A DNA stretch of 64,000 bases, from NCBI GenBank assembly GCA_038999725.1, contig JAWBWS010000002.1, forward strand, positions 32,001 to 96,000. Reading direction: 5' to 3'. Positions 13,696 to 64,000 of the stretch are shown here, piece by piece. Source of the stretch: Candidatus Aenigmatarchaeota archaeon (GTDB taxonomy: Archaea; Aenigmatarchaeota; Aenigmatarchaeia; CG10238-14; SCSR01). The translations under genes and the position numbers were made by a program. The stretch's first letter is position 1. Each line of letters opens with the position of its first letter. The notes beneath the pieces are model-generated. The model worked only from the letters and a program-made list of their open reading frames with translations. It was not told where the DNA came from and made no database searches.

Positions 13696-15045
13696 TCATA
13701 TCTTTCTGTAAACTTTATAAGAGGGCAACCCTTCTATTTCCATTTCCAAAATGTAGTTTTCCCGGATAAATCTGTTGAAGCTTTCTTCCGACATTAAATA
13801 TTCTTCTGCATCTATGAAAAAAGCTGGCTTCTTTTTCATCAACTCTTCTAGAATTTTACTTTCGTTCACAAATTTCAGGTAATCCAAGAAAGTGTCGAAA
13901 TAATTTGAAGTTATTTCTATGCCTGTTGAGAAAGAGATGAAGGAAGTTGTAGAATATTCGCCGAAAATTGTCTCCCCTTCTTTCGTTCTGTTTTGAATTA
14001 ACTCTTTAACTTGATAAATGCTAGTAAAACGCTTGGGATTGATGTAAAACTCTAGTGTTGAGAAATTCGTGTAGAAGGAAAGGAAGAAAATCAAGAGAAG
14101 GAAAACTTTTACAGAAATTTCTTTTGAAAGCAAGAATGCACTTGAAGTAGCAATCATGATAAAAGGTAGGGAAAACAAAAAGTAATGGTAAGCTATGTTC
14201 TTAAAGGAGAGTAAAAGGATGGAATCCACAAGAAGTGGGTAAAGAGAAAAAAGCATGTATTTTTTGTTTTCTTGTCTTGACAAAACAAGGGAAGAAACCA
14301 AACATAAAAAAATTGTGAAAAAACCGAAGTTGAGATATTGAAATATAAGCTTTGGTTTTGTGGAAATAAGTCTTGAAAAAAACTGGAAAATTATGGTATC
14401 GTGAATGAAATTGTAACCGAAAATTGAAAATAGGAGCAAGAATGTTGAAAGTGCCAAAGACGAAAGTGACAATACAAATTTCTTCAATTCACTCTTCTCG
14501 AAAAAGAGAAAATACAGAAGAAGAAATGGGAGATAAGTCAAGGCTAAATACCTGAAGAACAAGGCAATTGTGAATGAAAATGCTGAAAGTATAGGTTTGT
14601 GATCGAGGGCAAAGTGGAATGAAAGAAGTAAGAAAGCAAGAGCTTCCCAGGTGCCATATCCTTGATCTGAAAAAGTCAAGAAAGCTGGGAAAAGTAGGAA
14701 AAAAATGGAGGATAAGAGAGCTGTTTTTGAGTTAAACAGTTTCCTTGAGATGAAGAAAACCAGTGCCACGGAAAAACTGCTAGCAAGAAGTGGAACTAAT
14801 TTAGCTGTATGAAGTGAAACACCAAAAAGATGAAAAAAGAGTGCATACGTGTAAAGTTGAAGTGGGGGATGTACATAGCTGAAATCTTTATAAGGAATAA
14901 GACCCTCTTTCACCTTTTTCCCCATCAAGAAGTAAAGGTTTTCGTCAGAAAATGTTGGATGGATTGTTAGAAACTTGAGCAGAAAAAATATCAAGATTGA
15001 TGAGAACAAAATGATTTCTTCTTTCGAAAAAATTTCTGACTTCAT
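13696..15045 (-). CDS. GT-C fold membrane glycosyltransferase (ArnT/PMT-like)
   Basis: SDENLY...GLIPYKDFSYVHPPL luminal-loop motif; many TM helices. Confidence 0.8.
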   Translation of the reverse strand: MKSEIFSKEEIILFSSILIFFLLKFLTIHPTFSDENLYFLMGKKVKEGLIPYKDFSYVHPPLQLYTYALFFHLFGVSLHTAKLVPLLASSFSVALVFFISRKLFNSKTALLSSIFFLLFPAFLTFSDQGYGTWEALAFLLLSFHFALDHKPILSAFSFTIALFFRYLALTYLPFLLLYFLFFEKSELKKFVLSLSSLALSTFLLLFSIFGYNFIHDTIIFQFFSRLISTKPKLIFQYLNFGFFTIFLCLVSSLVLSRQENKKYMLFSLYPLLVDSILLLSFKNIAYHYFLFSLPFIMIATSSAFLLSKEISVKVFLLLIFFLSFYTNFSTLEFYINPKRFTSIYQVKELIQNRTKEGETIFGEYSTTSFISFSTGIEITSNYFDTFLDYLKFVNESKILEELMKKKPAFFIDAEEYLMSEESFNRFIRENYILEMEIEGLPSYKVYRKI

Positions 15046-15046
15046 C

Positions 15047-16642
15047 CTATCTATCTTTAAGGAGTTCTTTACTTAAAAATAAAAGTGGGAAGATGAAAAA
15101 GAGAAGTGGTAGAAATGGTATGTGAATGTAAGGTCTGTTGCATTTAAAACCACAAGGCATGGGTGTCAGCCTTATATCAACTTCATAAATATAACCATTC
15201 AAAACCTCTTCTAATATCCTGCTCCTGGGCCCATATTTAAAGAACTGTGGAATATAGTGTTCAAGTAATGGATTGGAAAGTATCTTGAAACTGTTTTGTT
15301 CTGTAAACCAGTCACCTCTCATATCCATAGTTTTCCAGTCATAAGCATCGTCTTCAGCAAAACCTAACCCTAGGATGTTCACGATAATGGACAACACAGC
15401 CAAGAATAAAAATAATTTCTTGGCATGGTTTTTGCTCAGGAGGTAAATCAGGGGAATGAATAGGAAAGGTGTGATTGGAAGGAAATATCTTTCTCCGAAA
15501 CAATAGCCACCCCACCAAATTCTTCTCATCGAAACAAAAATTGGGAATAGTAATAAAAGTGAAAAAATGAAAATAGACTCAAGCTTGTATTTTTTGCTCA
15601 TCAAGATGAGGCCTGGGATTGAAAGTAGCAAAACTGAATGGTAGAAGAAGAGGCCCCTGTAAGGATAAAAGAGCAATCTCAACACAACAAAAAGATTTGG
15701 TTTGGATTCAAAGTGTAATTTTTCGAGAAAGTTTAAGTCAAAGAGGGAAAGTTTTTTAACTTTTACACTTGGAGTTTGGGAAATCTCGTAAGCCCTAATG
15801 AAAATGTTCCTGTCAACATATGTGCTCGCGAAAACAAATGGGTTTTTAAAGTTGACGAAGTTATAGAGCAATAAGGGCAATGCTCCTAGCATGAAGCCAA
15901 AAAATATTGGTAAGAATTGCCTTTTCTTGAAAATTGAAAAGAGTAGGAGGGGTAAAGCCAAAAGTAAGATGGAATGGTCAATTGTTGTTGCAAAGCCTAG
16001 AGCTATGCCACCCAACAACATTTTTCTGAAGGTTGTGTGGGAGAGAAGTGTGTAGAAAGAGAGAAAAGCAAAGAAAGTCGAAGTTGCGTGATTCATGAAA
16101 TGAAGAGAATATGGGAATTGAAGTGTGGCTAAACCGTAAGTCAGAGCAACAGAAGCTTTCCATCTTTCACTTTTCAGAAACATTGAAGAAACTTTGAACA
16201 CGAGCACAACTGTTAATGCTGAAAAAATTGTTGAAGAAAATATCGTGAGAAAAATCATCGAGTAGTAATCTAATAAACCGAGGTTGACATACCAGTAAAT
16301 TTTCTCCTTACCAGAAATGTCTTCATAAAAAATATTGGGATTAAAGCTATACTCTTCTTTTAATTTGGATGGTAAAAACTGGTAGAGCCTGGACCAAAAA
16401 ATGTAAATTGGTTGAGAAATTATAGCTAACCCAGGATCTTTATCAGAGTAATAATGCCCGTTGAAAACAGCCCTATCTCCTGTGGTGTTGTAGAAAGAAT
16501 CTATCTCAAATCTGTTTTCTTCTCCTATTGCCTTCACGAGAACAAAATGAGATTGTTCGTTCCAACCATACCAGTTGATGAAAAGAGAATAGAATATGAA
16601 AAATGATAAAAAAACTTTAAATTCTTTCTTCATTCGACTCAT
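15047..16642 (-). CDS. Polytopic membrane protein, putative GT-C glycosyltransferase
   Basis: WNEQSH...GDRAVFNGHYYSDKDPG...WWGGYCFGERY motifs; paralog of 60475..62190. Confidence 0.72.
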   Translation of the reverse strand: MSRMKKEFKVFLSFFIFYSLFINWYGWNEQSHFVLVKAIGEENRFEIDSFYNTTGDRAVFNGHYYSDKDPGLAIISQPIYIFWSRLYQFLPSKLKEEYSFNPNIFYEDISGKEKIYWYVNLGLLDYYSMIFLTIFSSTIFSALTVVLVFKVSSMFLKSERWKASVALTYGLATLQFPYSLHFMNHATSTFFAFLSFYTLLSHTTFRKMLLGGIALGFATTIDHSILLLALPLLLFSIFKKRQFLPIFFGFMLGALPLLLYNFVNFKNPFVFASTYVDRNIFIRAYEISQTPSVKVKKLSLFDLNFLEKLHFESKPNLFVVLRLLFYPYRGLFFYHSVLLLSIPGLILMSKKYKLESIFIFSLLLLFPIFVSMRRIWWGGYCFGERYFLPITPFLFIPLIYLLSKNHAKKLFLFLAVLSIIVNILGLGFAEDDAYDWKTMDMRGDWFTEQNSFKILSNPLLEHYIPQFFKYGPRSRILEEVLNGYIYEVDIRLTPMPCGFKCNRPYIHIPFLPLLFFIFPLLFLSKELLKDR

Positions 16643-16656: not shown

Positions 16657-17946
16657 TTAAAAAATTAAATTCAAGAGGAAATCACAAAAATCTTCTGAAG
16701 TCATGTTGCTTTTCACCTTAACCTTTTTGTTTAAGATTACAAAACCCTTATCTTCTGGAAGAGAAGAAATGGTCCTACTCAAAATAAAATCTGAAAAACG
16801 ATAATTTTTTCCACTCAAATAGAATTCTTTATCTTCAATGATTTTAGGAAGCTTTCTCTTCAACAAAATTCCTGAATCAAAATCTTCAACATCAAACATT
16901 TCATACCCATATGGTAAAGTCCTCATTTCAGAAAAAATTTCCTTCAACTCTTCTTTCACTTCTTCCTTATTTTCAGCTTGAATAAAAATCTTTAGCTCTT
17001 CATCTATACCCTCTTCAAGCGTGTAAGCTTTCGTCCTTGAAAAATCTATTTCTTCCCTATAGTCAAATTCAAGAAGTCCCAATTCTTTCAATATTTTATT
17101 GATGTTGATTTTCTCCACAACTTTAGGGGGAAATTCTTCTTTAACTCCTCTGTTTGAAACTATAACTACCAGTTTGTTTGGCTTGTTTATTTTTCCAATG
17201 AAATCATCCAGTTCAATGAAATAATTTTCAATCACCCCACCATATCTCTCTATCTCTTTTTCAGTCACATAGCTACCAAATTTGTGAGGATGAGAATACA
17301 TCCAAAAATACTGTTCAATCCTTAAAGGTGAGGAAAAAACGAGAAAAGAGATTCTTGGTTTAAACTTTTCCCTCAAATAGAAAAACTCTCTCACATTCCT
17401 ATCGAGAAGATAAAACTCGTAAACCAAATCTTTCTCGGCTTTATTTTGTGGCAGCATCACTTTAAGCCAGTAAACTTTTCTGAGAAATTCTGTTATTGGA
17501 TTTTTGAAAATCAATAAAGCTTTAGAGTCGTATATCTCTTCAGGATATTCTTTCTTACCTTCAAACTCATCAGGAATCATGAATAAACCGTGTTCGGAAA
17601 CATTTGGCCAGTAAAGAGTTCCAAAACTTGTATTTCTCTCCTTCAATTTATTCCATAAGGATGTTTCATTGCATATGGTAAGAGAGTTCCAAGCTGAATA
17701 TGAGTCTAGTTTTGAAGTTGTGTAAAATGGTACAAATGTGCCTTCTTTAACAATCTTTTCTACATTTGGCAACTTCTTTTTTTCTATAAGAGATTGAAAA
17801 ACTTCATAGTCTCCACCATCCAATCCTATAACTAAAATCTCTTTTTCAGGTAAACTGAAAAGAAAGGGATAGAGAAAAGGGTAGAGGGAGAGGGAGAAAA
17901 GGATCGTGAAGGAAATGGCTATGATGAGTACATTCTTAAGCACCAT
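16657..17946 (-). CDS. Membrane-anchored alkaline phosphatase/phosphodiesterase superfamily protein (degenerate metal ligands)
   Basis: ILVIGLDGGD...LPNVEKIVKEG...SAWNSL; later motifs altered (RIEQYFW, VSNRG). Confidence 0.7.
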   Translation of the reverse strand: MVLKNVLIIAISFTILFSLSLYPFLYPFLFSLPEKEILVIGLDGGDYEVFQSLIEKKKLPNVEKIVKEGTFVPFYTTSKLDSYSAWNSLTICNETSLWNKLKERNTSFGTLYWPNVSEHGLFMIPDEFEGKKEYPEEIYDSKALLIFKNPITEFLRKVYWLKVMLPQNKAEKDLVYEFYLLDRNVREFFYLREKFKPRISFLVFSSPLRIEQYFWMYSHPHKFGSYVTEKEIERYGGVIENYFIELDDFIGKINKPNKLVVIVSNRGVKEEFPPKVVEKININKILKELGLLEFDYREEIDFSRTKAYTLEEGIDEELKIFIQAENKEEVKEELKEIFSEMRTLPYGYEMFDVEDFDSGILLKRKLPKIIEDKEFYLSGKNYRFSDFILSRTISSLPEDKGFVILNKKVKVKSNMTSEDFCDFLLNLIF

Positions 17947-17998
17947 GCTTTATTTTTAGAGCGTTAAGGATTTATTTCTCATGTTATAAGAAATTCTT

Positions 17999-18790
17999 AT
18001 GTTGAACAATTTGAAAAAAATTTATTCCTCAAAAAACATCATATTGAGTTTGGCTTTCACCGACTTAAAGATAAGGTATGTTGGTTCTTACTTGGGCATT
18101 TTCTGGTCTCTGCTCGAGCCTTTGTTATTGATTTCTGTATATTCAATAATTTTTCCCCTGATATTGAAAACAGATTTCTTGGAATGGTTTTTGCCTTTTA
18201 TTTGTGGTTTAATTCCCTATCGCTTCTTCAAAAGAGGTGTGATGGAAATGACAACTTGTCTAGTTGATTTTTCAAGTGTGCTTGAAAAATCTCTAATGAA
18301 TCCTGAAAATGTAATCTATGCAAAGGCGATTTCCACTTCACTCTCATTTTTTATAGAGCTTTTCATACTTCTTATCCTCGTGAGTATTTTCGTGCCGTTA
18401 TCACCATTTATCCTTTTATTACCTATTGTTTTTTCAATAAACTTTTTACTGAATTTGGGGCTTGGTATGTATCTTTCTGTCTTTTTCCCAAGGATGAGAG
18501 ATATAAGCTACATCCTTACAATCCTATTTGAAGCTCTGATGTTTTTGACCCCTATTGTTTACAGGATTGAATACATACCAAGCCTCTATAGAGGGATTTA
18601 CCTGCTCAACCCCATAGCAAGATTAATTTACGTTTATCAAGCTATTTTCCTCCACTCATCCCAAAAATTCGCTAAATACCTTTCAATATCACATGAACTA
18701 ATGTTGTTGTTTTTATTTTCTTCAGCTGTATTTATAATTGGGTACAAGAAGTTTGAAAGCAAAAGAGAAATTGGTTTGGAGTTGAGCTAA
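17999..18790 (+). CDS. wzm: ABC-2 polysaccharide exporter permease (Wzm/TagG-like)
   Basis: DLKIRYVGSYLGIFWSLLEPL, RDISY...FLTPIVY, LNPI motifs. Confidence 0.92.
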   Translation: MLNNLKKIYSSKNIILSLAFTDLKIRYVGSYLGIFWSLLEPLLLISVYSIIFPLILKTDFLEWFLPFICGLIPYRFFKRGVMEMTTCLVDFSSVLEKSLMNPENVIYAKAISTSLSFFIELFILLILVSIFVPLSPFILLLPIVFSINFLLNLGLGMYLSVFFPRMRDISYILTILFEALMFLTPIVYRIEYIPSLYRGIYLLNPIARLIYVYQAIFLHSSQKFAKYLSISHELMLLFLFSSAVFIIGYKKFESKREIGLELS

Positions 18791-20163
18791 TGGCGGTAAT
18801 AGAACTGAAGAATGTTTGGAAAGAATTCTCTCTTGAGAGAGAAAAGGAAATGACACTCAAGGAAAGATTTGTAAATTTAGGTAAGAGAAAAAAAGAAGAA
18901 AAGATTGTGGCTTTGAAAAATATCAATTTAAGTGTTGAAAGAGGAGAATGCTTAGGAATCTTGGGAAAAAATGGGTCTGGGAAGACAACTCTCCTGAAAA
19001 TAATTGCAGGGATACTTAAGCCAAATAGAGGATCTGTAAGGGTTGAGGGAAAAATAGCTCCAATACTTGCTCTTGGTCTTGGTTTTCAAAGGGAGTTAAC
19101 AGCAAAGGAGAACCTATATCTCTATGCTTCAATTCTTGGCTTGGATAAGAAAAAAACAGATGAAATATATGAAAAAATAGTGAAATTCTCTGAACTAGAA
19201 AAGATGATGGATGTTAAACTTAAAGACTTTTCAGATGGTATGATAATGAGACTCTCTTTCTCGATAGCATTTCACATAGATGCTGACATAATACTTATAG
19301 ATGAGGTACTGGCTGTTGGAGATGCTTCATTCCAAGCAAAATGTTTAGAGAAAATTAAGCAGTTAAAAGAAGAAGGTAAAACAATAGTCATAGTCCTTCA
19401 TACCACAGCTGAGATAAGAAAACTTTGTAATAGGGCTTTGATACTTGAGAAGGGTGAAATTATTTTTTCTGGGCAAGCAAGTGAAGTGTGTGAAAAATAT
19501 GATGAAATCATAGAAAATGAGAGGTTGAAGAGATTCAATGAAATGGTGATGGAAGAAACTGGCATAAAATTCAATGTTTTTTGTGAGGAAGAATTCATCT
19601 TGAAGAAAGGTAAAAAATGCTTAATAGAAGTAAAAATTGATAAGCCTATAGAATTACTTGAATTGTTCTTTGTGGGAAGGAATAGTGTGAGGGTGTTTAG
19701 CAAAAATCTTGATAATGGAAAAATAGTTTTTCAAATAGATTCTTTGCCTCTTCCTCAAGATGAATATGAAGTTTGGATTAGACATGAGGGTAAATTTTTA
19801 TCACAAAAACCATTCAAGGTAATTGTGAAAGGTTGGGAAGAAAGTAGAGAAAACAAGATTTATATGCTGCCTAGTTCAAGTTATCCATTTCAAGATTTGA
19901 CTGTTGTTTTTGGTGAAAATCCTGAAAAAGAGATGAAGATGTTTGAAGAGGGTAAAACAATATTTATCTTCAGTAATTTGGAAAAAATAGATGAGAAAGA
20001 AAATGCTTGCCTTTTTAGCGGAAGAAAACTATTGCTGAAGGGAAGAGGGGAACATGTTTTGAGAGAATTAAAAGAAAAAGTTTGGCATGATTTGGCTACA
20101 AGATATTTTAGTGATATCCTGATGAATAACCAAGTGGGAAAGGTTTTAATGGGGGTTTCATGA
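18790..20163 (+). CDS. wzt: ABC polysaccharide exporter ATPase (Wzt/TagH-like) with C-terminal extension
   Basis: GKNGSGKTT, GFQRELTAKEN, FSDGM, LIDEVLAVGDASFQAKC; about 200 aa C-terminal extension. Confidence 0.93.
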   Translation: MAVIELKNVWKEFSLEREKEMTLKERFVNLGKRKKEEKIVALKNINLSVERGECLGILGKNGSGKTTLLKIIAGILKPNRGSVRVEGKIAPILALGLGFQRELTAKENLYLYASILGLDKKKTDEIYEKIVKFSELEKMMDVKLKDFSDGMIMRLSFSIAFHIDADIILIDEVLAVGDASFQAKCLEKIKQLKEEGKTIVIVLHTTAEIRKLCNRALILEKGEIIFSGQASEVCEKYDEIIENERLKRFNEMVMEETGIKFNVFCEEEFILKKGKKCLIEVKIDKPIELLELFFVGRNSVRVFSKNLDNGKIVFQIDSLPLPQDEYEVWIRHEGKFLSQKPFKVIVKGWEESRENKIYMLPSSSYPFQDLTVVFGENPEKEMKMFEEGKTIFIFSNLEKIDEKENACLFSGRKLLLKGRGEHVLRELKEKVWHDLATRYFSDILMNNQVGKVLMGVS

Positions 20164-21293
20164 GAGAAATAGTGAAAAAAATTTTAGAGGTTATAGGACA
20201 CGAAGATGTGGTATTTGTTGGGAGAGAAAACCAAAAGGAGATAAAAACTATTCGACCTGAAGAATTAGAACTTTACCCAAGAAAATTTAGAAATATAATA
20301 ATTGAAGATCTTGACCAAATAGATGAAAAGATTATTGAAAAAATAGCAAGAATGGGGGATTGTCTGTGGATACCAGTTTCTATGGATAAACTTATAAGAA
20401 AAGTTGATTCTGTAATTGAAGGCATGATTGAAAAAGAAGAGTTTGAAGAAGTGAATGTGAACAAAAAAATGGAGATATTGAAAAAATTGTTTGATGGTAA
20501 TATATTTGTTGCAAATTTTAACCTATCTGATAAAGCAGTTGTAATACCAAGAGAGATGGAAAAAATTCCCAGTGATGTGAAAATTGAGCCATTCTCCTCG
20601 TTTTTCCTCAATTTAAGTATGGTTGAATATTTGAAGTTAAAGTTAGAGGAAGTCAAAAGCGAGAAAGAAAGGTTAAGTAAGGAGTTAGAAGAAGAAAGAA
20701 GTAAAGTTAGAAGCGAGAGTGAAAAGGTTAAACTTGTGAGTGAGGAGCTGGAAAAAATAAAAAAGGAGAAGGAAGAATTGCAGAAGAGATTTGAGACTGA
20801 GAAAAAGGAATTGCAGAAGAGATTTAGAAGAGAAGTGGTCAGAATTTTGAAAGAGAAGGAAAGGTTGGAAGATGAGAAAAAGGAATTGCAAAGTGAGATT
20901 GAGGAAGAGAGAAAAAGGTTGGAAGATGAGATTGAAAGGTTGAAAAAAGAAAGAGAAAAAAGTATCTCCAACTTAGAAGCTAGAATTTTGAAAGAGAAGA
21001 AAAGGTTGGAAGATGAGAAAAAGGAATTGCAGAAGAGATTTAGAAGAGAAGTGGTCAGAATTTTGAAAGAGAAGGAAAGGTTGGAAGATGAGAAAAAGGA
21101 ATTGCAAAGTGAGATTGAGGAAGAGAGAAAAAGGTTGGAAGATGAGATTGAAAGGTTGAAAGAAAAATTTGAAATAGAGAAAAAAGCCATAGAGGAACAG
21201 TATAAAGAAGAATTGAAAAAAATTGTGTTTGAAATGGGCTTAAAAATAGAGGAAAAGGAAGAAGAGTTGAAAAGATTGAGGGGATGGAGATAA
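20160..21293 (+). CDS. Long coiled-coil protein with internal duplication (possible chain-length ruler)
   Basis: E/K/R-rich heptads over about 220 aa; translationally coupled to wzt. Confidence 0.75.
   Translation: MREIVKKILEVIGHEDVVFVGRENQKEIKTIRPEELELYPRKFRNIIIEDLDQIDEKIIEKIARMGDCLWIPVSMDKLIRKVDSVIEGMIEKEEFEEVNVNKKMEILKKLFDGNIFVANFNLSDKAVVIPREMEKIPSDVKIEPFSSFFLNLSMVEYLKLKLEEVKSEKERLSKELEEERSKVRSESEKVKLVSEELEKIKKEKEELQKRFETEKKELQKRFRREVVRILKEKERLEDEKKELQSEIEEERKRLEDEIERLKKEREKSISNLEARILKEKKRLEDEKKELQKRFRREVVRILKEKERLEDEKKELQSEIEEERKRLEDEIERLKEKFEIEKKAIEEQYKEELKKIVFEMGLKIEEKEEELKRLRGWR
20798..21161. repeat. About 148-bp identical intragenic direct repeat (20798-20945, 21014-21161; 216-bp period)
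   Basis: Encodes EKKELQKRFRREVVRILKEKERLEDEKKELQSEIEEERKRLEDEIERLK twice. Confidence 0.88.
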
Positions 21294-21299
21294 AAGGAT

Positions 21300-32259: not shown

Positions 32260-32263
32260 TAAG

Positions 32264-34481: not shown

Positions 34482-34530
34482 AGGAAGGTGGTGAAAGATT
34501 AGAATAAAAGGAATTATTTATGATGTAGGA

Positions 34531-35643: not shown

Positions 35644-35709
35644 AGTATCGGAAGCAAAAATAAGAGAAATTTAAATTTTAAAAATTAAATCACTAAAAGA
35701 GACTTAATT

Positions 35710-36940: not shown

Positions 36941-36942
36941 TT

Positions 36943-43766: not shown

Positions 43767-43767
43767 A

Positions 43768-47321: not shown

Positions 47322-47325
47322 AATT

Positions 47326-52035: not shown

Positions 52036-52043
52036 ATATACCA

Positions 52044-55825: not shown

Positions 55826-56883
55826 AAAGACTTGTAAGATGGTCTAAAGGAAGAAAGAGTTTACCTTACAGTATAGAATTGAGTCCAACTTTGAGATGTA
55901 ATTTGAATTGTCTTTTTTGTTGGAGATATGGGAAAAAGATTGAGTATGGAGATGAATTGACATTGGAAGAATATAAAAGGATTTTAAAGGAAGCTGAGGA
56001 GCTTAAGGTGAGAGAAATAAGAATCATAGGAGGAGGTGAACCCTTGTTAAGGAAAGATACTTTCGAATTAATGAAGGAAGTTAAAAAACATGGGATGTTC
56101 GGATACATTTGTACTAATGGTACACTCTTTTCAGATGAAGCTATAAAAACATTGGTATCAATTGGGTGGGATCATGTAAAAATTAGTGTTCATGCCCCTG
56201 ATAAAAAAACTCAAGACTTTTTAGCCCAAGGGAAAAGTTTTGAGAGGCAAATAAAAAACATAAAAAGTTTTGTTGGATGGAAAAGGAAATTGAAATCGGA
56301 GAGCCCGAAAATTGAAATTGGCCTTGTCTTGAATAGGCTGAACTTCAGAAAAGTAATGGATATGGTAAAACTGGTAAAGAAATTGAATGTACAAGCATTT
56401 TTCATTGAGCCAATAACTGTGTATACCAAAATTGGAAAAAATTTGAAATTAAGAAATGAAGAGAGTGAAGAATTCAAAGAAATAGCAAGAAAAGCTTATT
56501 CTATTTCAAATGGTTTGGAAACAAACTTACAACAATTTTTTTCACGGGAGCTTATAGAAAAGACTGGAAAGATGTTAGAAGAAATCAAAAAACTAGTAAA
56601 GAGTGTGAGGGATGATTTTCTTTCAATCCCTTGTTATGAGCCCTGGTGGAGAATGGGGATAAGGGTAGATGGATGGGTTTGTCCTTGTGGATTTTTGGAT
56701 CAAAACACCAGAGAAAATGTGCGTAATAAGAGTTTAAAGGAAATCTGGTTTGGTGAATATTTTGAGGAAAGGCGAAAACAATTGCTTCAAAAAAATATGC
56801 CAAAATATTGCCAGAAATGTTGCACTACTTTGGTCCAATATAATCAAATAATAAGGGAAGAACTTTCAAAATTCATAGGCTGA
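55810..56883 (+). CDS. Radical SAM/SPASM protein (paralog 24)
   Basis: CNLNCLFC, IGGGEPL, CYEPW...CPC...CQKCC. Confidence 0.93.
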   Translation: MEEKIKRLVRWSKGRKSLPYSIELSPTLRCNLNCLFCWRYGKKIEYGDELTLEEYKRILKEAEELKVREIRIIGGGEPLLRKDTFELMKEVKKHGMFGYICTNGTLFSDEAIKTLVSIGWDHVKISVHAPDKKTQDFLAQGKSFERQIKNIKSFVGWKRKLKSESPKIEIGLVLNRLNFRKVMDMVKLVKKLNVQAFFIEPITVYTKIGKNLKLRNEESEEFKEIARKAYSISNGLETNLQQFFSRELIEKTGKMLEEIKKLVKSVRDDFLSIPCYEPWWRMGIRVDGWVCPCGFLDQNTRENVRNKSLKEIWFGEYFEERRKQLLQKNMPKYCQKCCTTLVQYNQIIREELSKFIG

Positions 56884-57037: not shown

Positions 57038-57123
57038 TCTTCTCTTAAGTTCTTTTGAAAAATTTTTTGCTCTTAGCTTTATTTTCATATTTTTTATTTT
57101 TTGGTTTCAGAGTATTTATTTTT

Positions 57124-58323
57124 ATGAAGGTTTGTATAATCAGTAGGGGGGACTTAAGCTTATTCCCACCCACTCAAGGTGCTTCTTACAAATTGTTCTA
57201 TACACTTAAAGCTCTCTCTGAAGCTGGGGTAGAAGTTTATTTTGTAACAGCTGAAGATGAATTTTACTATAGGGTTGAAGGAGGAAAATTTGAGAAAAAA
57301 CCTTACCCATCTTTGCTTAGAAACTCCAAGTTAAAACCCTTTCAAAAGAGACTTCTTTCTCTTATTGGCATACCTCATGATATATATCCTATCTACCATC
57401 CCTTGGTTAATTTTAAACTTTGGTTAAGACTCTTTTATGTGGCGAGAAAAGAAAAGATTGACATCATTCAAGCTGAATTTACCACTTTTGCTATTCCCGC
57501 TATTCTTGTGAAGCTATTAACAGGCATTCCGGTTTGTTTGGTTGAGCACAATGTAGAATCATTTCAGATTCCACAGATAACAGAAATAAGAGAAAGGGGG
57601 GAAAAGCTTGTAAGATTTGTGGAAAAGAATGTTTGTAACATTTCAGATAGTGTTATAGCTATAACAGAAGAAGATAAAAGACGTCTACAGCTCATAGGTG
57701 TGAAGAAAGAAAAAATTAAAGTTATACCTTTTGGAGTTGATTTAAAAGCATATAATGTTAAGAGAAGTGAAATTTCAAAAGTTAAGAAAAAACTCAAACT
57801 TAAGTTTCCTACTTTAGTTTTTCATGGCACTTATTCCTACAAACCAAATCTAGATGCAGTAAAATTTTTATCTCAAGTTGTCATGCCACATCTCAGAAAG
57901 AAGAAAATAAAAGCTAAACTCTTGGCTATAGGCGACTTCCCACCAAAAGATATAAAAGAAAAAGATGTAATTTTCACAGGAGTTGTTGAGAATTTGCCTA
58001 CATATTTAAAAGCAGCCGATATTGCTGTTGTTCCTATAGTAGCTGGAGGTGGGATGAGAATAAAAATTTTGGAGTATTTTGCCGCCCAGATACCAGTAGT
58101 TTCTACATCCTTTGGAGCGGAGGGTATACCTGTAAGAGATGGTGAAGAAATTGTTATTGCCAAACTAAAGGACTTCCCGGAAAAAGTGAAAAAGCTCATC
58201 AAAGAGAAAAGATTAAGAGAAATGATAAAGAGAAGGGCTTTTCTCTTCATAAAAGGGTGGGAGTGGAAAAAAATAATAGAAAAATACATAGAGGTTTATA
58301 GAGAGTTGACTAATAAGAATTAA
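57124..58323 (+). CDS. Glycosyltransferase family 4
   Basis: EHNVES, YKPNLDA, ADIAVVPI...GGMRIKILEYFAA; start MKVCII preferred. Confidence 0.92.
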   Translation: MKVCIISRGDLSLFPPTQGASYKLFYTLKALSEAGVEVYFVTAEDEFYYRVEGGKFEKKPYPSLLRNSKLKPFQKRLLSLIGIPHDIYPIYHPLVNFKLWLRLFYVARKEKIDIIQAEFTTFAIPAILVKLLTGIPVCLVEHNVESFQIPQITEIRERGEKLVRFVEKNVCNISDSVIAITEEDKRRLQLIGVKKEKIKVIPFGVDLKAYNVKRSEISKVKKKLKLKFPTLVFHGTYSYKPNLDAVKFLSQVVMPHLRKKKIKAKLLAIGDFPPKDIKEKDVIFTGVVENLPTYLKAADIAVVPIVAGGGMRIKILEYFAAQIPVVSTSFGAEGIPVRDGEEIVIAKLKDFPEKVKKLIKEKRLREMIKRRAFLFIKGWEWKKIIEKYIEVYRELTNKN

Positions 58324-58332
58324 GGTGTGTGA

Positions 58333-59469
58333 ATGAAAATTTTGTTTGTAACTCCTTTTTATCTATTTCCACCCTATTGGGGAGGGGGGACAAGAACTTA
58401 TAATTTAGTAAAACATCTTGCAAAAAACCATGAAGTTTTTTTAATATCGCCATTTTATAGACAGTTTGAAGAAAAGAGAATCAACACTCATAGATTCGAG
58501 CTCGAGAGATTGGGTGTAAAAGTGTTTACTCCAAATCCTTTAGTTAGGATTGAACATCCATTTACAAAACATATCAATCCAGAAGTTATTTTGAAGGGTT
58601 TAGAAATAATTTTGAAGGAAAAAATTGATGTGATGATTTGTGATTATCCTTGGGCTGGAATAAATGTTTTGGTCCTTCACTTTCTTACAAGAATACCCTT
58701 TATTCTCCATGAACACAACATAGAGTTTATAATTAAGGATGAAATTCGAGCAAAGTATGGGAGACTAATGAAACTACTAGAGCTTTTGTTATGTAAAGCT
58801 TCGAAAAAAGTAGTGGTTGTGTCTCAGAACGATAAAGAGTTAATGATAAAGACTTTGAAAGTGAACAAAAAGAAGATTAGTGTAGTTGAAAATGGATTTG
58901 ATAAAAATCTCTTCTATCCAAAGAGAAATAGCATGGAAAAAATTAGAAAGAAGTATAATTTGGGAAACAATCCAATTGTTCTGTTTTTCGGTAAACTTGA
59001 TTACCCACCAAATAAGGAAGCTGTGTTTAATATTAGATGGAAAATTATGCCAAAGGTATTGGAAAAAATTCCCAATGCTAAATTTCTCATAGTTGGGAAA
59101 AAATACGAGTTTGGTATAGAGCATGAGGCAATGGTCTTCACTGGTTTGGTTGATGATATTGAAAATTACATAAATGTGGCTGATGTTGTGATTGTTCCAA
59201 TTCTTGCAGGAAGTGGAACCAGGATTAAAATTTTGGAGGCAATAGCATGTGGTAAAGTTGTTGTTAGTACCTCAAAAGGAGCAGAAGGACTTATAAATGA
59301 GTTAACTAAACCTTTCTTGAAAATAAGTGATGATTGGGAAACTTTCTCTAATCTGATAGTTGAGAGTATTCAAAATCCAGAAAAAAAAGAAGTTCCAAAA
59401 GAATTTGAGGAAAAATATGCCTGGCAGAACATTTACAAGAAATTTAACAAAATATTGGAGAGTGTGTAG
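58333..59469 (+). CDS. Glycosyltransferase family 4
   Basis: PPYWGGGTR, LDYPPNKEA, GSGTRIKILEAIACG. Confidence 0.92.
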   Translation: MKILFVTPFYLFPPYWGGGTRTYNLVKHLAKNHEVFLISPFYRQFEEKRINTHRFELERLGVKVFTPNPLVRIEHPFTKHINPEVILKGLEIILKEKIDVMICDYPWAGINVLVLHFLTRIPFILHEHNIEFIIKDEIRAKYGRLMKLLELLLCKASKKVVVVSQNDKELMIKTLKVNKKKISVVENGFDKNLFYPKRNSMEKIRKKYNLGNNPIVLFFGKLDYPPNKEAVFNIRWKIMPKVLEKIPNAKFLIVGKKYEFGIEHEAMVFTGLVDDIENYINVADVVIVPILAGSGTRIKILEAIACGKVVVSTSKGAEGLINELTKPFLKISDDWETFSNLIVESIQNPEKKEVPKEFEEKYAWQNIYKKFNKILESV

Positions 59470-59473
59470 AAAA

Positions 59474-60469
59474 ATGAAAAAATTGGAAAAAATTGTGATA
59501 ATTGTTAGCATAGTGTGGATAGTATGGTATTTTTACTGTTGGTCCAAACCAACAAAACACATAAATCCTATAACCTATAAGGGGTTTGGATGGTATGGAT
59601 ATGTCGCTGAAGATGAAATAAATGAAGAGGTTTTGCGGGAAATAAAAGAAGTAGGAGGCAACGCCATTAACATTAACGTATATTATGAGTATGATTTAGA
59701 AAACGAGAGTTTTATTCTTCTTTCAAATCTAACAAAAATTAAGGAAAAAATAGAACTAGCACACAAGAATAACCTAGTAGTTTTTTTGTCACCATTTGTT
59801 AATCTTGTTGGAGGAGATTATACAGCCGGTAAAATCTCTAAACCTGAAAAGTTCTTAGAAGGAGCGAGAAATGTATCAATTGAACTAGCAGAATTTTGTG
59901 AAAAAAATAAAATTGAAATATACGCGGTTTGGAATGAATTAGGGCTTGCTATTCACAAGTTACCAAATTCTACAGAATTAACAAACGAGTGGTTGCAAAA
60001 TATTAGAAAAGAAGTCAAAAACGTTTATAGAGGCGTTCTTACAACTAAAGAAGGTGTTCAATTAGATTTGTATGAAAAATATGACTTTTCAGGCTATGAT
60101 TGTATTGGTCTTACCTTCTACCCATTCACAACATCTTTTGCCACTGATCCTTACACGAACATAACCTATGCTGGCGTTGAAAGTTTAGAAGAATATGAAA
60201 TAGTGGTGAAAGAAAAAATTGAAAAGATAATGGAACTAAAAGTAAAATACCGTATACCATGTGTAATTCTGGGAGAAATTGGTATTGATGTTGTTGGGGG
60301 GAAGTTCATAGATAGAGATCCTGTGAGCAAAAATATAAGGGCTATAGCTTATAAAACAATTTTGTCTCATGGATTAGAGATAATTGACGGTTTCTTTTTC
60401 AGTAAATTTGAAGAAGAAGGTAAAATAGATAGTGAATTAAAACAAGTCTTTCAAAGGTTCTTTCAATGA
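59474..60469 (+). CDS. Membrane-anchored clan GH-A-like glycoside hydrolase (TIM barrel)
   Basis: N-terminal TM from MKKLEK; AVWNEL (acid/base position) and ILGEIG (nucleophile position). Confidence 0.72.
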   Translation: MKKLEKIVIIVSIVWIVWYFYCWSKPTKHINPITYKGFGWYGYVAEDEINEEVLREIKEVGGNAININVYYEYDLENESFILLSNLTKIKEKIELAHKNNLVVFLSPFVNLVGGDYTAGKISKPEKFLEGARNVSIELAEFCEKNKIEIYAVWNELGLAIHKLPNSTELTNEWLQNIRKEVKNVYRGVLTTKEGVQLDLYEKYDFSGYDCIGLTFYPFTTSFATDPYTNITYAGVESLEEYEIVVKEKIEKIMELKVKYRIPCVILGEIGIDVVGGKFIDRDPVSKNIRAIAYKTILSHGLEIIDGFFFSKFEEEGKIDSELKQVFQRFFQ

Positions 60470-60474: not shown

Positions 60475-62190
60475 TCATTGTATTTCTATAAAACTAAGGA
60501 ATAAAAGCAAAAATAGAATGGTTAAAATAAAAACAAACTCATCTTTCATCAATATTTTTCTAACATGTTTGTTCTGAAATATCTCTTTACCCCATAGGAG
60601 AAATGTTACCAGAGTTACAGGAATCATAGAAAGGAATGGAACTCTTAGTGCTATCTTGAGGTAATTTGAAGACAACAAATCAATTTTATAAAACTTAAGG
60701 TACTGATCTGCTGTTCCAAATTGTGGTGACCAGTGTCTTATGTCAACTTCAACTTTACCGGAAATTATCTCTTCAAAAATTCTGCTTCTTGGACCATTTT
60801 TGAAAAATAAGGGTATATAATGCTCTTTTAAGGGGTTTTTGAGTATTTCAAATGAATTCAGCTGGCTGATGATTGGTGGTGTTGGCAAGTTGGGTAAGAA
60901 AGGTGCAAGTGTTTGTAGCCCTAGAAAGTTAGTAAAAATTGAGAGGCATGCGAAGAAGAGCAGATATTTTATCAGATTTTTTTTGAATATGAAGGCTAGA
61001 GGCAAACTTAAGAATGGAGCCAGGGGTGCAAGATACCTAGGTCCAAAACAAAGACCACCTGACCATGAGAAGTATAAAGAATTAGCTATAACAAAAACTA
61101 AAAAAATAGATATTATTAAGATGGCTTCTGCTTTGAATTTTTTCTTCATGAAATAGAGGCCTAAAAGGGAGAAAAGTAAAATTGGATAATGGAAGAAAAG
61201 TCCTCTTGCGGGATAGAATAATAGTCTCATGAAGATTACATGGATGTTGTAGTCTAAACCAGCAAAATATCTATTAAAAGGAATTAGTTCTCCATAGCCA
61301 ATGGAGCTCAGCTTAAAAAGGAACAATCTGAAAATGGTACTAGAGTAATATGAAAAAGTGTTAAAGACGTTTGAAAAAACAAAATGGTTGTAAATTAACA
61401 AAGGTAAAATGCCAAGCAATATTCCAAAAATAAAGCTAAGCTTGTTCTCCTTTTTCTTAAAACTATAGAAACAATAAGCTGATAATAAAGGTACTGTTAA
61501 GATAACAAACGGATTCGTGACAACAGAATATCCAAGGAATATCCCTGAAGAAAAATTCGTATGAAAGATTTTTCTTTCTTCTCTTTGCTTGTTTATAAAC
61601 AAAATGTAAAATGCAAGGAATGTGAGAAATGTGGATACAGCCTCGCTCTGGAATGTTAGTGAATAGGGAAAAATAGAGGTTCCTAAACCATAAACTATTG
61701 TTAAGAAAAGTCTAGTAGCATTATTTTTAATGAAAAATTCTGAAATTTTGTAAACAAGTACAACGCTTAAAGCTGAGAACAAGGAAGAAGTAAGGGTTGT
61801 GAGAAGTATCATTGAAGTTAATATGAAAAAACCAGGAGAAATAATCCTCAGAGCCAAGAACGGCTTTTCGACCAAATAATCTGAAGATCCTTTATGTACT
61901 TCTTTGAACCACTTGGGAAAAAAGTTGAAATAAACATCTTTCCATAGCTTGTAGATGAAGGAAGATAGGAAAGGTAATCCCGGTGTATCTTGGGAATAAA
62001 CGTGCCCAGCATGGTATACTCTATCACCTGTCTGATTTTGGAAACTATCGATTTCGAACCTGTTTTCTTCCACAATCGCACGAACCAAAGCAAAAAAGGA
62101 TTCTTCATTCCATGTCGACCAGTAAATGAAGAAAGAATAAATAAAGAAAAAAGTGAGGAAGATTCTCACCTCATAGTATCCTTTGGGCAT
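60475..62190 (-). CDS. Polytopic membrane protein, putative GT-C glycosyltransferase (paralog of 15047..16642)
   Basis: WNEESFFALVRAIVEENRFEIDSF.N.TGDR, WSGGLCFGPRY, GPRSRI motifs shared with 15047..16642. Confidence 0.75.
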   Translation of the reverse strand: MPKGYYEVRIFLTFFFIYSFFIYWSTWNEESFFALVRAIVEENRFEIDSFQNQTGDRVYHAGHVYSQDTPGLPFLSSFIYKLWKDVYFNFFPKWFKEVHKGSSDYLVEKPFLALRIISPGFFILTSMILLTTLTSSLFSALSVVLVYKISEFFIKNNATRLFLTIVYGLGTSIFPYSLTFQSEAVSTFLTFLAFYILFINKQREERKIFHTNFSSGIFLGYSVVTNPFVILTVPLLSAYCFYSFKKKENKLSFIFGILLGILPLLIYNHFVFSNVFNTFSYYSSTIFRLFLFKLSSIGYGELIPFNRYFAGLDYNIHVIFMRLLFYPARGLFFHYPILLFSLLGLYFMKKKFKAEAILIISIFLVFVIANSLYFSWSGGLCFGPRYLAPLAPFLSLPLAFIFKKNLIKYLLFFACLSIFTNFLGLQTLAPFLPNLPTPPIISQLNSFEILKNPLKEHYIPLFFKNGPRSRIFEEIISGKVEVDIRHWSPQFGTADQYLKFYKIDLLSSNYLKIALRVPFLSMIPVTLVTFLLWGKEIFQNKHVRKILMKDEFVFILTILFLLLFLSFIEIQ

Positions 62191-62221: not shown

Positions 62222-63592
62222 ATGAAAATTGGAACTCAAACTGATTATTTACTTCTATCTAGAACTCTGAAAAAAGATGAGAAAATCCTTGATTCTACTC
62301 TCAGTGTATGTTCTTCTTGTTTCAAAATCATTCCAGCTTTGATAGTTGAAAATGATAAAAAAGTGTTTCTTAAAAAAGAGTGTTGTGAAAAAGAAAATGT
62401 ACTATTAGAAAATGATGTGGAATACTACAAAAAAGCTGTTTTTCCCTTTGTGATTGAACGGAATTTTTTAACTCTTGGTGAAAACAGATTTAGTGAAAAA
62501 ATACTTCAAAAGTTATATGACGAAGCTAGTTTTATCATGATAAATGTAACTTCCAGATGTAATTTAAACTGCCCTATTTGTTGTGCTGAATTGGCACCAA
62601 ATTATTTCCCGAGACGTGATTATCCCCTGGAAGATATTCTTAAGTTTATTGCCAAACAAAAATCCAAGATGATTCTGATAAGTGGTGGGGAACCAACAGT
62701 AAGAAAAGATTTGCCGAAGATTATAGAGGCGATTGTTAAGAGTGGTAATGTTCCTCTTTTATACACCAACGGTTTAATGCTTACTGATAGAAGATACGTT
62801 AGAAAACTCAAAAGAAGTGGTCTTAGATTGGTTTGCCTATCATTTGATGGATTTGATGATTTTGTATACCAAACATTAAGAGGTAGAAAACTGTTAAAAC
62901 AAAAATTACTTGCACTAAAAAATCTAAAAAAAGAGAAAATGTTGGTTTATCTTCTCTGCGCGGTTGCTAGAGGACTGAATGAGTTTCAAGTGAAACTTAT
63001 AGTAGAATTTGCAAAGCGAAATAGCGATTTTATAAGGGGTGTTCGATTTAGTCCCTTATATCCCAAGGAAGGTGAGAATGAAAGAGCTACTCCATCTGAT
63101 GTGATTAAAACTATAAAGTTCTATTTTCCAATGGTAAGTGAAGAAGATTTTATAGAGAGCAGAAGATTTTTCTACAATCTATATAGAACTACAAGAAAAC
63201 TGTCTAAAAAATTGGGAAAAAATTTCTCCTACCTCCTTCAAGAAAGTATGTATATTTACCTGAAGGTAAAAAACAACAAAATTGAGCCTGTGTTTTCTTC
63301 CACTTATCTTAAAAAAGTGAATAGAGTGTTAGAATCTTTTATTATGGAAAAAAGTAAAATCAGGTCGTTCTTTATTTTACTTAAAATTTTACCTTACCTC
63401 TTAAGCAAAGATTTATTGAGGTTAAGCATGGTTAGCCTTAAGAATTTGTTTGTTATGCCTAGAGCATCAATCTTTACCCCAAAGGATATTTTCATTCTTA
63501 AAGTTGGTGATCTCATATTCACAAAACTTGAAGATACAAGAAGGAAATTTTTTGGTGAAGGTGCCTTGCTTTTCTTAGAACCTTACCAATAG
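62222..63592 (+). CDS. Radical SAM protein, MJ0619/Tes-like N-terminal metal-binding domain, no C-terminal Cys cluster
   Basis: TLSVCSSCFKIIPALIVENDKKVFLKKECC; CNLNCPIC; SGGEPTVRKDL; LSFDGFDD. Confidence 0.85.
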   Translation: MKIGTQTDYLLLSRTLKKDEKILDSTLSVCSSCFKIIPALIVENDKKVFLKKECCEKENVLLENDVEYYKKAVFPFVIERNFLTLGENRFSEKILQKLYDEASFIMINVTSRCNLNCPICCAELAPNYFPRRDYPLEDILKFIAKQKSKMILISGGEPTVRKDLPKIIEAIVKSGNVPLLYTNGLMLTDRRYVRKLKRSGLRLVCLSFDGFDDFVYQTLRGRKLLKQKLLALKNLKKEKMLVYLLCAVARGLNEFQVKLIVEFAKRNSDFIRGVRFSPLYPKEGENERATPSDVIKTIKFYFPMVSEEDFIESRRFFYNLYRTTRKLSKKLGKNFSYLLQESMYIYLKVKNNKIEPVFSSTYLKKVNRVLESFIMEKSKIRSFFILLKILPYLLSKDLLRLSMVSLKNLFVMPRASIFTPKDIFILKVGDLIFTKLEDTRRKFFGEGALLFLEPYQ

Positions 63593-63621
63593 ATTAATTT
63601 AATCTAGTCAATGGGTTAATT

Positions 63622-64000
63622 ATGAAGATTTGCTTAATAGACCCTGGTTTTACCTTTTACCCTTATCAGTCTCTTGGAATACTCTACATAGGATCTTTTC
63701 TTGAAGAAAATGGAAAAGAAGTGTGTTTTCTTAATTTCTCGGGCCAAAAGATTGATGAAGAAAAAATTAGAAAAATTCTCACAGATATAAAACCAGATAT
63801 ACTCGGGATTACCTGTGCATTTGGACAAATAAAGAGAACTCTTCTGATAAGCAAGGTTGCAAAAGAGTTAGGTGCTAAGGTAGTTTGCGGGGGACTTGCT
63901 CCAACTGCGCTTCCTATGTCGTTTATTGAAAATGATTGCATAGATTATGTTGTGGTGGGAGAGGGTGAACATACTATGCTTGAGTTATGTGAAGCAATAG
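63622..64000 (+). CDS. Cobalamin-binding domain radical SAM protein (5' part, truncated by the window)
   Basis: Not in the ORF track. MKICLIDPG...SLGILYIGSFLEENG...KPDILGIT...VVCGGLAPTALP...DYVVVGEGEHT. Confidence 0.88.
   Translation, partial: MKICLIDPGFTFYPYQSLGILYIGSFLEENGKEVCFLNFSGQKIDEEKIRKILTDIKPDILGITCAFGQIKRTLLISKVAKELGAKVVCGGLAPTALPMSFIENDCIDYVVVGEGEHTMLELCEAI

Follow-up and report, generated by a model that had tools for sequence, protein, structure and literature searches.

A battery of 24 predicted radical SAM enzymes linked to a putative glycan-export operon in an aenigmatarchaeal genome

We analysed a 64,000-nucleotide stretch of DNA (hereafter the window) from the genome of a Candidatus Aenigmatarchaeota archaeon, a member of the DPANN, in which 24 related genes for radical S-adenosylmethionine (SAM) enzymes, here named r01 to r24, share an island with a Wzm-Wzt-type ATP-binding cassette (ABC) exporter and glycosyltransferases (GTs). 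Our best reading, held with moderate confidence, is that these enzymes form a glycan-linked radical tailoring battery; from the gene content we infer the substrate, the reactions and the attachment of the product to the cell surface. The source genome (G000) comprises 729,769 bp in nine contigs and is an estimated 93% complete. The window corresponds to C2:32001-96000 and is AT-rich, with a GC content of 31-40%.

The 24 open reading frames (ORFs) encode proteins of 337-468 amino acids (aa) with a Radical_SAM domain (PF04055) that scores 61-104 bits against a cut-off of 29.5. They are arranged as r01-r11 (11 genes, 22194-34481, plus strand), r12-r14 (three genes, 35843-39095, minus), r15-r16 (two genes, 40195-42676, plus), r17-r18 (two genes, 42648-44781, minus), r19-r20 (two genes, 46212-48420, minus) and r21-r24 (four genes, 52557-56883, plus); the last set consists of core orthogroups and is followed by the glycosyltransferase genes GT4a and GT4b, while r19 and r20 represent the least conserved orthogroups. 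The initial annotation counted 26 radical SAM genes, and Pfam bears this out: outside the 24-member family lie a zinc-ribbon gene (62222-63592, plus) and a B12-binding gene (446 aa; 63622-64000, plus, continuing 962 nucleotides past the window, L003:622-1962). When a profile of the 24 was searched against the whole genome, family members scored 302-473 bits and the next match 75 bits. All 24 members are thus confined to the island, and none occurs elsewhere in the genome.

Exactly seven Cys residues are conserved across the 24 orthogroups (170 members from 12 contig sets). Three form a CxxxCxxC motif, which begins at residue 16-57 in all 24 paralogs, and four lie in the C-terminal region (residues 301, 319, 359 and 362 of r08; C-x17-C ... 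C-x2-C); r01-r03 form a subgroup that keeps a fifth C-terminal Cys. The Pfam SPASM model scores above its cut-off in 21 of the 24 proteins, below it in two, and is unreported in one, and in sequence comparison the C-terminal Cys region aligns to the twitch domain of BtrN. By its motifs the family belongs to the twitch subclass, with one fully Cys-ligated auxiliary cluster predicted; the full SPASM subclass has seven or eight C-terminal Cys, compared with four here, or five in r01-r03. This single four-Cys motif of the BtrN kind agrees with the comparison to BtrN made previously. No paralog reaches a curated cut-off of any NCBIfam model, and the family is therefore unnamed. TIGR04317 gives the highest score for most members (87-133 bits; cut-off 380), with different top models for r01-r03 and r12-r13.

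A maximum-likelihood tree of 170 sequences placed each paralog in a clade of its own, mostly with one ortholog per genome. The 24 clades take in 163 of the sequences, and support is at least 0.92 for 20 clades, 0.79-0.89 for three and 0.295 for that of r19. Mean identity is 49% within orthogroups and 30% between them; the positions that are fixed within groups but differ among them are few, and are located on barrel strands and beside the auxiliary-cluster Cys. In G028, which belongs to a different family, 20 of the 24 paralogs have a reciprocal best hit, at identities of 47-78% for 18 paralogs and 40% for r18 (second-best hits, 31-50%), and r01-r14 are likewise tied to G005. We rejected a recent tandem amplification: the paralogs are 19-43% identical to one another (median 32%), and each has orthologs elsewhere. 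Together, these comparisons point to a battery of distinct, individually maintained enzymes, whose old orthogroups are colinear across families.

Among 40 related genomes searched, arrays of 11-24 members are present in six, the source included; of the seven further genomes in its genus, four lack one. When five candidates per genome were scored across 370 genomes of the phylum, 18 gave a match at E ≤ 1e-60; in 13 of these, spanning at least seven families, the best E was 1e-119 or below. The compact island of G261 consists of wzm-wzt-X-GT2, r01-r08, r11, r21-r24 and GT4a-GT4b (13 radical SAM genes), and a core of about 13 enzymes is common to all full islands examined. The middle of the island is variable: r15, r17, r19 and r20 have no reciprocal best hits in G028, and additional B12 radical SAM genes occur in the islands of G099 and G107. 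The initial annotation had envisaged a hypervariable cell coat, a wording that the paralogs do not bear out: they are old, single-copy and colinear across families, and what varies is the presence or absence of the whole island, together with its middle. A variable coat is thus supported at the level of the whole island, in whose place at least one array-free relative carries other large ORFs, and not at the level of the paralogs.

Using an alignment of r08 orthologs as the query for related loci in other contigs, we recovered single-group orthologs from contigs of 27-60% GC, labelled archaeon, Methanosarcinales, Syntrophomonadaceae and Thermodesulfobacteriota. Given this range of GC content, the cassette is present in very different genomes. 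One contig, L044 (GC 0.41), retains r01-r08, r24, GT4a and GT4b in order. L044 and three others (L040, L045 and L049; GC 0.57-0.60) bear bacterial labels and hold array orthologs at 38-53% identity, reflecting either inter-domain transfer of the cassette or mis-binning, as labels of metagenome bins are fallible.

The linkage of the array to exporter and GT genes, previously proposed from this single locus, recurs in other genomes. GT2 lies directly upstream of r01 in all eight loci that show this edge (G000, G028, G005, G003, G099, G107, G261 and G252), wzm-wzt falls inside the island wherever the locus is of sufficient length (six of six), and GT4a follows r24, directly or within two ORFs, in six of seven loci (GT4b in five of seven, with L047 showing GT4a alone). 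We also found distant members of the family (206-231 bits, 25-30% identity, same Cys pattern), in single or few copies, in four other genomes of the class. Their neighbours, in all four loci, are nucleotide-sugar and glycan genes: GT2/GT4, sugar nucleotidyltransferase, UDP-sugar dehydrogenase and NAD epimerase/dehydratase. DegT aminotransferase, PMT_2, carbamoyltransferase and B12 radical SAM genes occur there as well. Neighbourhoods of homologs had been suggested as the place to look for GT, wzm and wzt genes, and they show a conserved association.

From wzm (17999) to the ORF end at 35643, 17 ORFs all run on the plus strand, with ends that overlap or gaps of at most 49 nucleotides, in agreement with the single coupled operon that had been supposed to start at wzm. 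The ABC-2 permease gene wzm (17999-18790, plus) encodes a Pfam ABC2_membrane domain, and its PDB matches are KpsM-type (8tsh, 9qfx) and Wzm-type (6m96) permeases, at 43-50 bits, as well as TarG. The ATPase encoded by wzt (18790-20163, plus) is closest to Aquifex aeolicus Wzt (214 bits, E 2.9e-62), followed by TarH (176 bits) and mycobacterial RfbE (144 bits), with TagH also close; the top PDB matches of both proteins are glycopolymer exporters only, whose cargo is lipid-linked. Wzt ends in a 210-aa C-terminal extension, modelled as an Ig-like sandwich plus an alpha/beta part at a mean predicted local distance difference test score (pLDDT) of 88.9. This beta-sandwich occupies the same place as the carbohydrate-binding domain of other Wzt proteins, and its Z-scores of 6.5/6.2 to that domain of A. 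aeolicus Wzt compare with 7.6 to an unrelated Ig-like domain (filamin); the C-terminal part had no usable match in the ESM Atlas. GT2 (21300-22193, plus) is a Pfam Glycos_transf_2 protein whose best NCBIfam model is AglG-type (120 bits, below cut-off). GT4a (57055-58323, plus) matches Glyco_trans_1_4 and Glyco_transf_4, and GT4b (58333-59469, plus) is recognized by Pfam and resembles TIGR03087 in NCBIfam (141 bits, below cut-off).

Genes for a lipid carrier are located elsewhere in the genome: a cis-prenyltransferase (186 bits), a WecA/AglH-type PF00953 transferase (121 bits) and AglB/STT3. Geranylgeranylglyceryl phosphate (GGGP) synthase was not found in this 93% complete genome. Because the carrier genes are present and GGGP synthase was not found, the cell would be able to make a glycan carrier, and apparently not its own core lipids. 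As judged from domain matches, the parts of an ABC-transporter-dependent pathway are all in place: a permease with a Wzt-type ATPase, cytoplasmic GTs, a carrier and an initiating transferase. The sole cis-prenyltransferase match (G000:C1:94527-95230) is split, with profile positions 1-34 in a short, TGA-containing frame just upstream of the main 206-aa frame, which could reflect a frameshift, a misassembly or a start site further downstream.

Between wzt and GT2 lies a gene for a 377-aa coiled-coil protein (20160-21293, plus), with a globular head of about 150 aa and a long coiled coil bearing an internal repeat; its one NCBIfam match is a weak, SMC-type coiled-coil match. WbdD of Escherichia coli O9a is a coiled-coil regulator of chain length. 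By analogy of position and form the protein recalls WbdD, and may set chain length in a similar manner. Within the protein, a segment of about 45 residues is duplicated almost perfectly. Proteins at the wzt-GT2 position range from 273 to 537 aa across genomes, as expected if diversifying pressure acted on coil length.

We propose the following scheme for the tailoring of an exported glycan. GT2, GT4a and GT4b would assemble the glycan on polyprenyl phosphate, made by genes elsewhere in the genome, at the inner face of the membrane. The 24 soluble twitch-type enzymes would edit the carbohydrate before it leaves the cytoplasm, either as an activated sugar donor or as a lipid-linked chain. Each enzyme would cleave SAM at its CxxxCxxC cluster and abstract one specific hydrogen, with the four-Cys auxiliary cluster serving as an electron conduit, as in BtrN. 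Possible outcomes include a keto-sugar, an epimer, a deoxy or decarboxylated sugar, or a carbon-carbon link; reduction of keto-sugars by the island's aldo/keto reductase/Fe-S protein could give net epimerisation. The B12 radical SAM, SGNH and carbamoyltransferase proteins might add methyl, acyl and carbamoyl groups, respectively. Wzm/Wzt would then export the product, and GT-C-like enzymes would transfer or extend it outside the cell, probably onto the large surface proteins encoded nearby.

A bolder form of this scheme, which we offer tentatively and consider doubtful, places all editing after assembly: a simple glycan, built by three GTs out of common sugar donors, would be rewritten, residue by residue and while lipid-linked, by 13-24 position-specific enzymes into a polymer of rare sugars. 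The editors would then include epimerases, dehydrogenases, deoxygenases and carbon-carbon couplers. Such a process would be the carbohydrate counterpart to radical peptide tailoring, and would give an organism whose 0.73-Mb genome encodes few nucleotide-sugar pathways a coat that is chemically exotic and varies between strains.

To compare the enzymes with proteins of known structure, we used the r08 structure that AlphaFold predicted from 50 sequences (pLDDT 95.9). VIA-align ranked first BlsE (Z 27.2, root mean square deviation 2.9 over 304 residues, about 20% identity), followed by DesII (25.7), SkfB (25.4), SuiB (24.5), PqqE (22.2), anSME (21.6), viperins (about 21), MoaA (20.5), GDGT-MAS (18.3) and BtrN (17.1). 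BlsE and DesII act on nucleoside- or nucleotide-linked sugars.

Several observations weigh against a carbohydrate substrate, three of them from such comparisons. Foldseek placed the peptide enzymes SuiB and SkfB first, ahead of BlsE, PqqE, DesII, CteB and anSME, at similar TM-scores (0.5-0.62); the VIA-align gap between BlsE and SkfB/SuiB is just 2-3 Z units; and the best solved relatives by profile-sequence search are the peptide-modifying PqqE (103 bits), SkfB (100) and SuiB (90), ahead of CteB (74), BlsE (73), MoaA (71) and BtrN (70). The island has no nucleotide-sugar genes, and it encodes 24 radical SAM enzymes against three cytoplasmic GTs; we know of no glycan that requires so many radical steps, and this ratio (13-24 enzymes to three GTs across islands) is the chief difficulty for the glycan reading. 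Neither GT4a nor GT4b is present in the 60 kb read from G099, and the right end of the island has a lipid-like character, taken up below. Because SkfB and SuiB score so close to BlsE, the fold does not decide the substrate class, nor does the sequence, and the two tilt only slightly towards sugar-acting enzymes. In the comparison with sugar enzymes proposed initially, BlsE and DesII lead in VIA-align and the BtrN twitch domain can be aligned, but peptide enzymes are close as well.

The strongest rival, which we regard as unlikely, is lipid editing. The enzymes would act, in the manner of Tes, Grs, Hbs or Hgm, on isoprenoid chains of the polyprenyl/dolichyl carrier or on membrane lipids taken from a host, while sugar head groups would come from the GTs, and the glycolipid so formed would be flipped by Wzm/Wzt. 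There is a precedent, which also counts against a glycan substrate: in archaeal lipid tailoring, an AhbD-like SPASM/twitch radical SAM enzyme, Hbs, is paired with the B12 methylase Hgm (10.1101/2023.10.20.563219). The closest lipid systems, Tes/GDGT-MAS, GrsA/B and Hbs plus Hgm, likewise use radical SAM enzymes, some of them SPASM/twitch, together with B12 partners on a membrane-bound substrate (10.1101/2023.10.20.563219). The paralogs match AhbD at 56-103 bits, and those for which the Tes model (NF045702) is listed score 40-65 bits; ABCA lipid exporters are likewise among the matches of the Wzt ATPase domain (111-125 bits); and GGGP synthase was not found, so that lipids are probably scavenged.

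The right end of the island adds to this case, with four genes that look lipid- or carrier-related by their sequence matches: the zinc-ribbon radical SAM gene, the B12 radical SAM gene, a zinc-ribbon methyltransferase gene (L003:1970-2806) and a UbiA prenyltransferase gene (L003:2814-3710). The zinc-ribbon radical SAM protein (Zn_ribbon_HMPTM, 36 bits; G107 ortholog, 48% identity) is TrsS/Tes-like, at 165 and 140 bits against NCBIfam cut-offs of 490 and 450, and the B12 protein is most like the BchE, ladderane-lipid (150 bits) and HpnJ (146 bits) models. UbiA could make a polyprenyl-phosphate sugar donor for GT-C enzymes rather than a membrane lipid, as GGGP synthase was not found. Other evidence speaks against lipid editing. 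Structural similarity to GDGT-MAS lies well below that to BlsE and DesII, the NCBIfam lipid models all score far under their cut-offs, and the CxxxCxxC motif starts too early for the N-terminal lipid-pocket domain of Hbs, which the island enzymes lack. In addition, distant relatives stand beside nucleotide-sugar enzymes, not lipid genes, in all four loci, and glycopolymer exporters are the top matches of Wzt and Wzm. Lipid radical SAM enzymes come as one or two genes without exporter and GTs, whereas the island holds a battery with both.

Protein or peptide maturation is an improbable alternative. A RiPP-like (ribosomally synthesized and post-translationally modified) peptide, the giant surface proteins or the AlkP-type enzymes would be modified, and the ABC-2 exporter would carry the product. 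This reading draws on the PDB sequence matches (PqqE, SkfB, SuiB and CteB) and on the Foldseek order, and ABC-2 transporters do occur in sactipeptide clusters. The array also contains conserved small ORFs, and large surface proteins flank the island. However, the RiPP hallmarks are missing, as the initial annotation had noted: Pfam scans of 53 window ORFs found neither PqqD/RiPP recognition element (RRE; PF05402) nor peptidase-type transporter domains, and the genome's sole PqqD-like signal, on another contig, scores 21.5 bits against a cut-off of 23.4. With CxxxCxxC preceded by only about 15-55 residues, there is no room for a fused RRE. SPASM peptide maturases and anSME have seven or eight auxiliary Cys where only four are conserved here, and the island has no peptidase or cyclase genes. 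We rejected anSME-type maturation of the AlkP protein as the main role of the array, since the AlkP gene is not conserved among islands. No precursor peptide gene was recognised, the candidates being two conserved small ORFs, cc91 and a 48-aa zinc ribbon; a short unannotated one is possible.

The first of these, cc91 (31984-32259, plus), encodes a 91-aa coiled-coil protein adjoining r09, with an invariant SISYR-type C-terminal motif and no Cys. Orthologs are present in G028, G005, G003, G006, G099, G107, G147 and G029, beside r09 wherever found. Complex prediction favours binding of cc91 to r09, with a score of 0.66 compared with 0.00 for the best of three controls; by a calibration that is approximate here, as our own alignments were used, 116 of 157 solved complexes and two of 215 mismatched pairs reach the mark. 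At least 87% of contacts recur between runs, with a partner pLDDT of 76 or more. In the model, the central helix of cc91 (residues 37-49) meets r09 residues 106-112, 131-136 and 181-183, which, aligned to the r08 model, map to outer helices away from the barrel mouth. We therefore read cc91, on this predicted interface, as a probable adaptor or tether, not a substrate. A search for longer (fused) cc91 relatives found none, which is weak evidence. The second small ORF (35710-35856, plus) encodes a double CPxCG protein of 48 aa with a weak zinc-ribbon match in Pfam, and G006 has an ORF 85% identical to it.

Nucleotide or cofactor chemistry apart from the glycan, such as modified nucleotides for defence made by MoaA-, viperin- or tungsten-cofactor-maturase-like enzymes, is very improbable: TIGR04317 is the top model for most paralogs, archaeal MoaA and prokaryotic viperin models reach 110 and 83 bits, and viperins and MoaA match structurally at Z 20-21.6, but all of these bit scores are far under the cut-offs (380, 325 and 180, respectively), four auxiliary Cys are conserved here, unlike in MoaA (three Cys, which leave an iron site of the auxiliary cluster open) and viperins (no auxiliary cluster), and the linkage to GT2, wzm-wzt and GT4 would go unexplained. 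The tungsten maturase model is the best-scoring one without its cut-off being reached, and Pfam scans found in the island no aldehyde:ferredoxin oxidoreductase gene, unlike the TIGR04317 context.

With BlsE (7VOB), DesII (8HZV) and BtrN (4M7T) the island enzymes share a partial TIM-barrel core, a C-terminal domain with one auxiliary cluster (predicted here), the lack of an RRE and a carbohydrate-related genomic context. They are nevertheless distinct from BlsE: its model TIGR04466 is listed for three of the 24 paralogs, at 55-67 bits against a cut-off of 400, and identity is about 20%. BlsE, DesII and BtrN work singly on small soluble intermediates of secondary metabolism, in contrast to the 13-24 enzymes within an archaeal export operon described here. 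The exporter type and the cytoplasmic GTs resemble those of A. aeolicus Wzm/Wzt, TarGH/TagGH and the mycobacterial galactan Wzm-Wzt; unlike in bacterial ABC glycopolymer pathways, the host is an archaeon, and the acceptor would not be lipopolysaccharide or peptidoglycan. In proteusin/polytheonamide pathways, radical SAM epimerases and B12 C-methyltransferases alter a ribosomal polymer at numerous sites, which offers a conceptual parallel for editing after assembly. Those pathways employ a leader-bearing peptide and few iterative enzymes, whereas the island has many non-redundant enzymes and neither a recognised precursor nor an RRE.

To our knowledge, carbohydrate radical SAM chemistry has been described solely for single enzymes from antibiotic pathways. 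Our literature search found no ABC-exporter glycan pathway with radical SAM genes in its operon, and in full texts, supplements excluded, no account of glycan export loci with arrays of radical SAM genes was found. One Xanthomonas paper that appeared to link radical SAM and wzm/wzt genes was set aside as irrelevant, the radical SAM gene being a 68-aa plasmid ORF. Thus radical SAM tailoring of carbohydrates is known, and the new element is a conserved battery of 13-24 enzymes within an exported-polysaccharide operon. If the reading is true, it describes a new way of making surface glycans, with sugars or linkages that have probably not yet been seen. The 24 paralogs encode 8,901 residues in 26.7 kb, or 3.7% of the genome, and the island takes up about 8% of it; in a genome of 0.73 Mb this suggests that the product is under strong selection, most likely where the cell meets its host or its viruses. 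The orthogroup map provides a defined gene set, with the 13 genes of the minimal G261 island as its core.

The island extends beyond the coordinates given in the initial annotation, reaching left to about 6787 and running about 3.3 kb beyond the window, where it takes in the B12 radical SAM gene, those for the methyltransferase and UbiA, and an OB-fold ORF of 195 aa. In the array-free genomes G007 and G002 of the same genus, synteny with the left flank runs up to a small winged-helix gene (6608-6814) and stops in G007 at a LamG gene (6787-10902), and synteny with the right flank resumes at a HerA-type gene about 3.3 kb past the window end. Because these flanks are syntenic, we count the roughly 60 kb from the LamG gene through the genes after UbiA as an accessory segment. 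The two flank contigs of G007 terminate in large ORFs that run off their ends: one of 706 aa or more, 29% identical to a portion of the LamG protein, and one of 1,195 aa or more. The corresponding contigs of G002 terminate in an ORF of 487 aa or more (left) and in small ORFs (right). The island therefore occupies a site where at least G007 carries large ORFs, one of them LamG-like. Its GC content is about that of the remainder of the genome, no tRNA gene was found at its borders and Pfam scans detected no integrase domain there, so that the island shows no mobile-element hallmarks. In three metatranscriptome runs of the same study, of which about 3-5% each was read, no reads were placed on 17000-36999, a result that does not bear on expression.

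The LamG gene at the left edge of the variable locus (plus strand) encodes a 1371-aa surface protein with one N-terminal transmembrane segment and a Laminin_G_3 match of 76 bits. Surface proteins at 1518-5138 and 6787-10902 flank the island and contain Big_7, Big_1-like and LamG domains; these Ig-like/LamG proteins are likely acceptors of the glycan. A cupredoxin-like ORF of 138 aa lies at 11511-11927. It is followed by a gene for a 575-aa protein with one N-terminal transmembrane segment (11928-13655, minus), which has an ortholog in G005 (37% identity) and no match in Pfam, NCBIfam or PDB sequences. A 429-aa protein with an N-terminal transmembrane segment (16657-17946, minus) has orthologs adjoining wzm in G005 (66%) and G028 (57%) and no family match in Pfam or NCBIfam.

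Family, PDB or sequence matches confirmed most non-radical-SAM assignments of the initial annotation, namely wzm, wzt, the coiled-coil protein, GT2, both GT4 enzymes, the SGNH protein, the carbamoyltransferase and the aldo/keto reductase. The SGNH/GDSL hydrolase or acyltransferase (49214-50260, minus; Pfam Lipase_GDSL_2) has an N-terminal transmembrane segment. The NodU/CmcH-type carbamoyltransferase (50344-52089, minus) matches Carbam_trans_N and Carbam_trans_C at 287 and 237 bits, and upstream of it is a small DUF5989 membrane protein gene (52262-52423, minus; 42.7 bits). The aldo/keto reductase (39154-40194, plus) (Aldo_ket_red, 126 bits) carries a fused 4Fe-4S dicluster domain (Fer4_17), an arrangement found in five islands: those of the source, G028, G099 (two copies), G107 (two copies) and G006. 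In a related glycan locus of G283, the carbamoyltransferase (L061:1415-4129) has a LAGLIDADG-type insertion between its N- and C-terminal domains, which is probably an intein.

Other assignments fared less well. Three GT-C enzymes had been proposed. One is a Pfam PMT_2 protein (13696-15045, minus; 42.8 bits; nine predicted transmembrane segments) kept in G005, G099 and G107. The other two are putative GT-C-like polytopic proteins with just weak matches to the NCBIfam LA_3751/LA_3752 model (cut-off 200): one at 15047-16642 (minus; 25.9 bits; seven predicted transmembrane segments; orthologs in G005 and G099) and one at 60475-62190 (minus; 48 bits; nine predicted segments). Only one of two AlkP-family proteins could be recovered (44778-46031, minus), by a weak Phosphodiest (PF01663) match of 25.8 bits and with no PDB sequence match; Pfam scans did not find the second. 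Two GH-A-like proteins were not substantiated. The 370-aa protein at 34531-35643 (plus) has a sub-threshold GH113 match (22.6 bits against a cut-off of 27), and the conserved 369-aa protein at 59360-60469 (plus), whose orthologs follow GT4b in G028 (66%) and G107 (53%), has no significant match in Pfam, NCBIfam or PDB sequences. Lastly, a Cys-rich 189-aa protein with an N-terminal transmembrane segment (48594-49163, minus) has weak orthologs in G028, G107 and G006.

Two features of individual paralogs were also observed. The r11 and r22 proteins share an extra conserved Cys just after barrel strand 5, and r07 and r12 share one before strand 6 (alignment positions equivalent to r08 residues 188 and 207); speculatively, these could be hydrogen-donor residues of epimerase-type members. 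The r22 and r23 genes lie in one frame, separated by a single TGA directly before an ATG (54749-54754). The combined open frame spans 727 aa here and 725 aa at the orthologous site in G006, and read-through or recoding would yield a two-domain enzyme.

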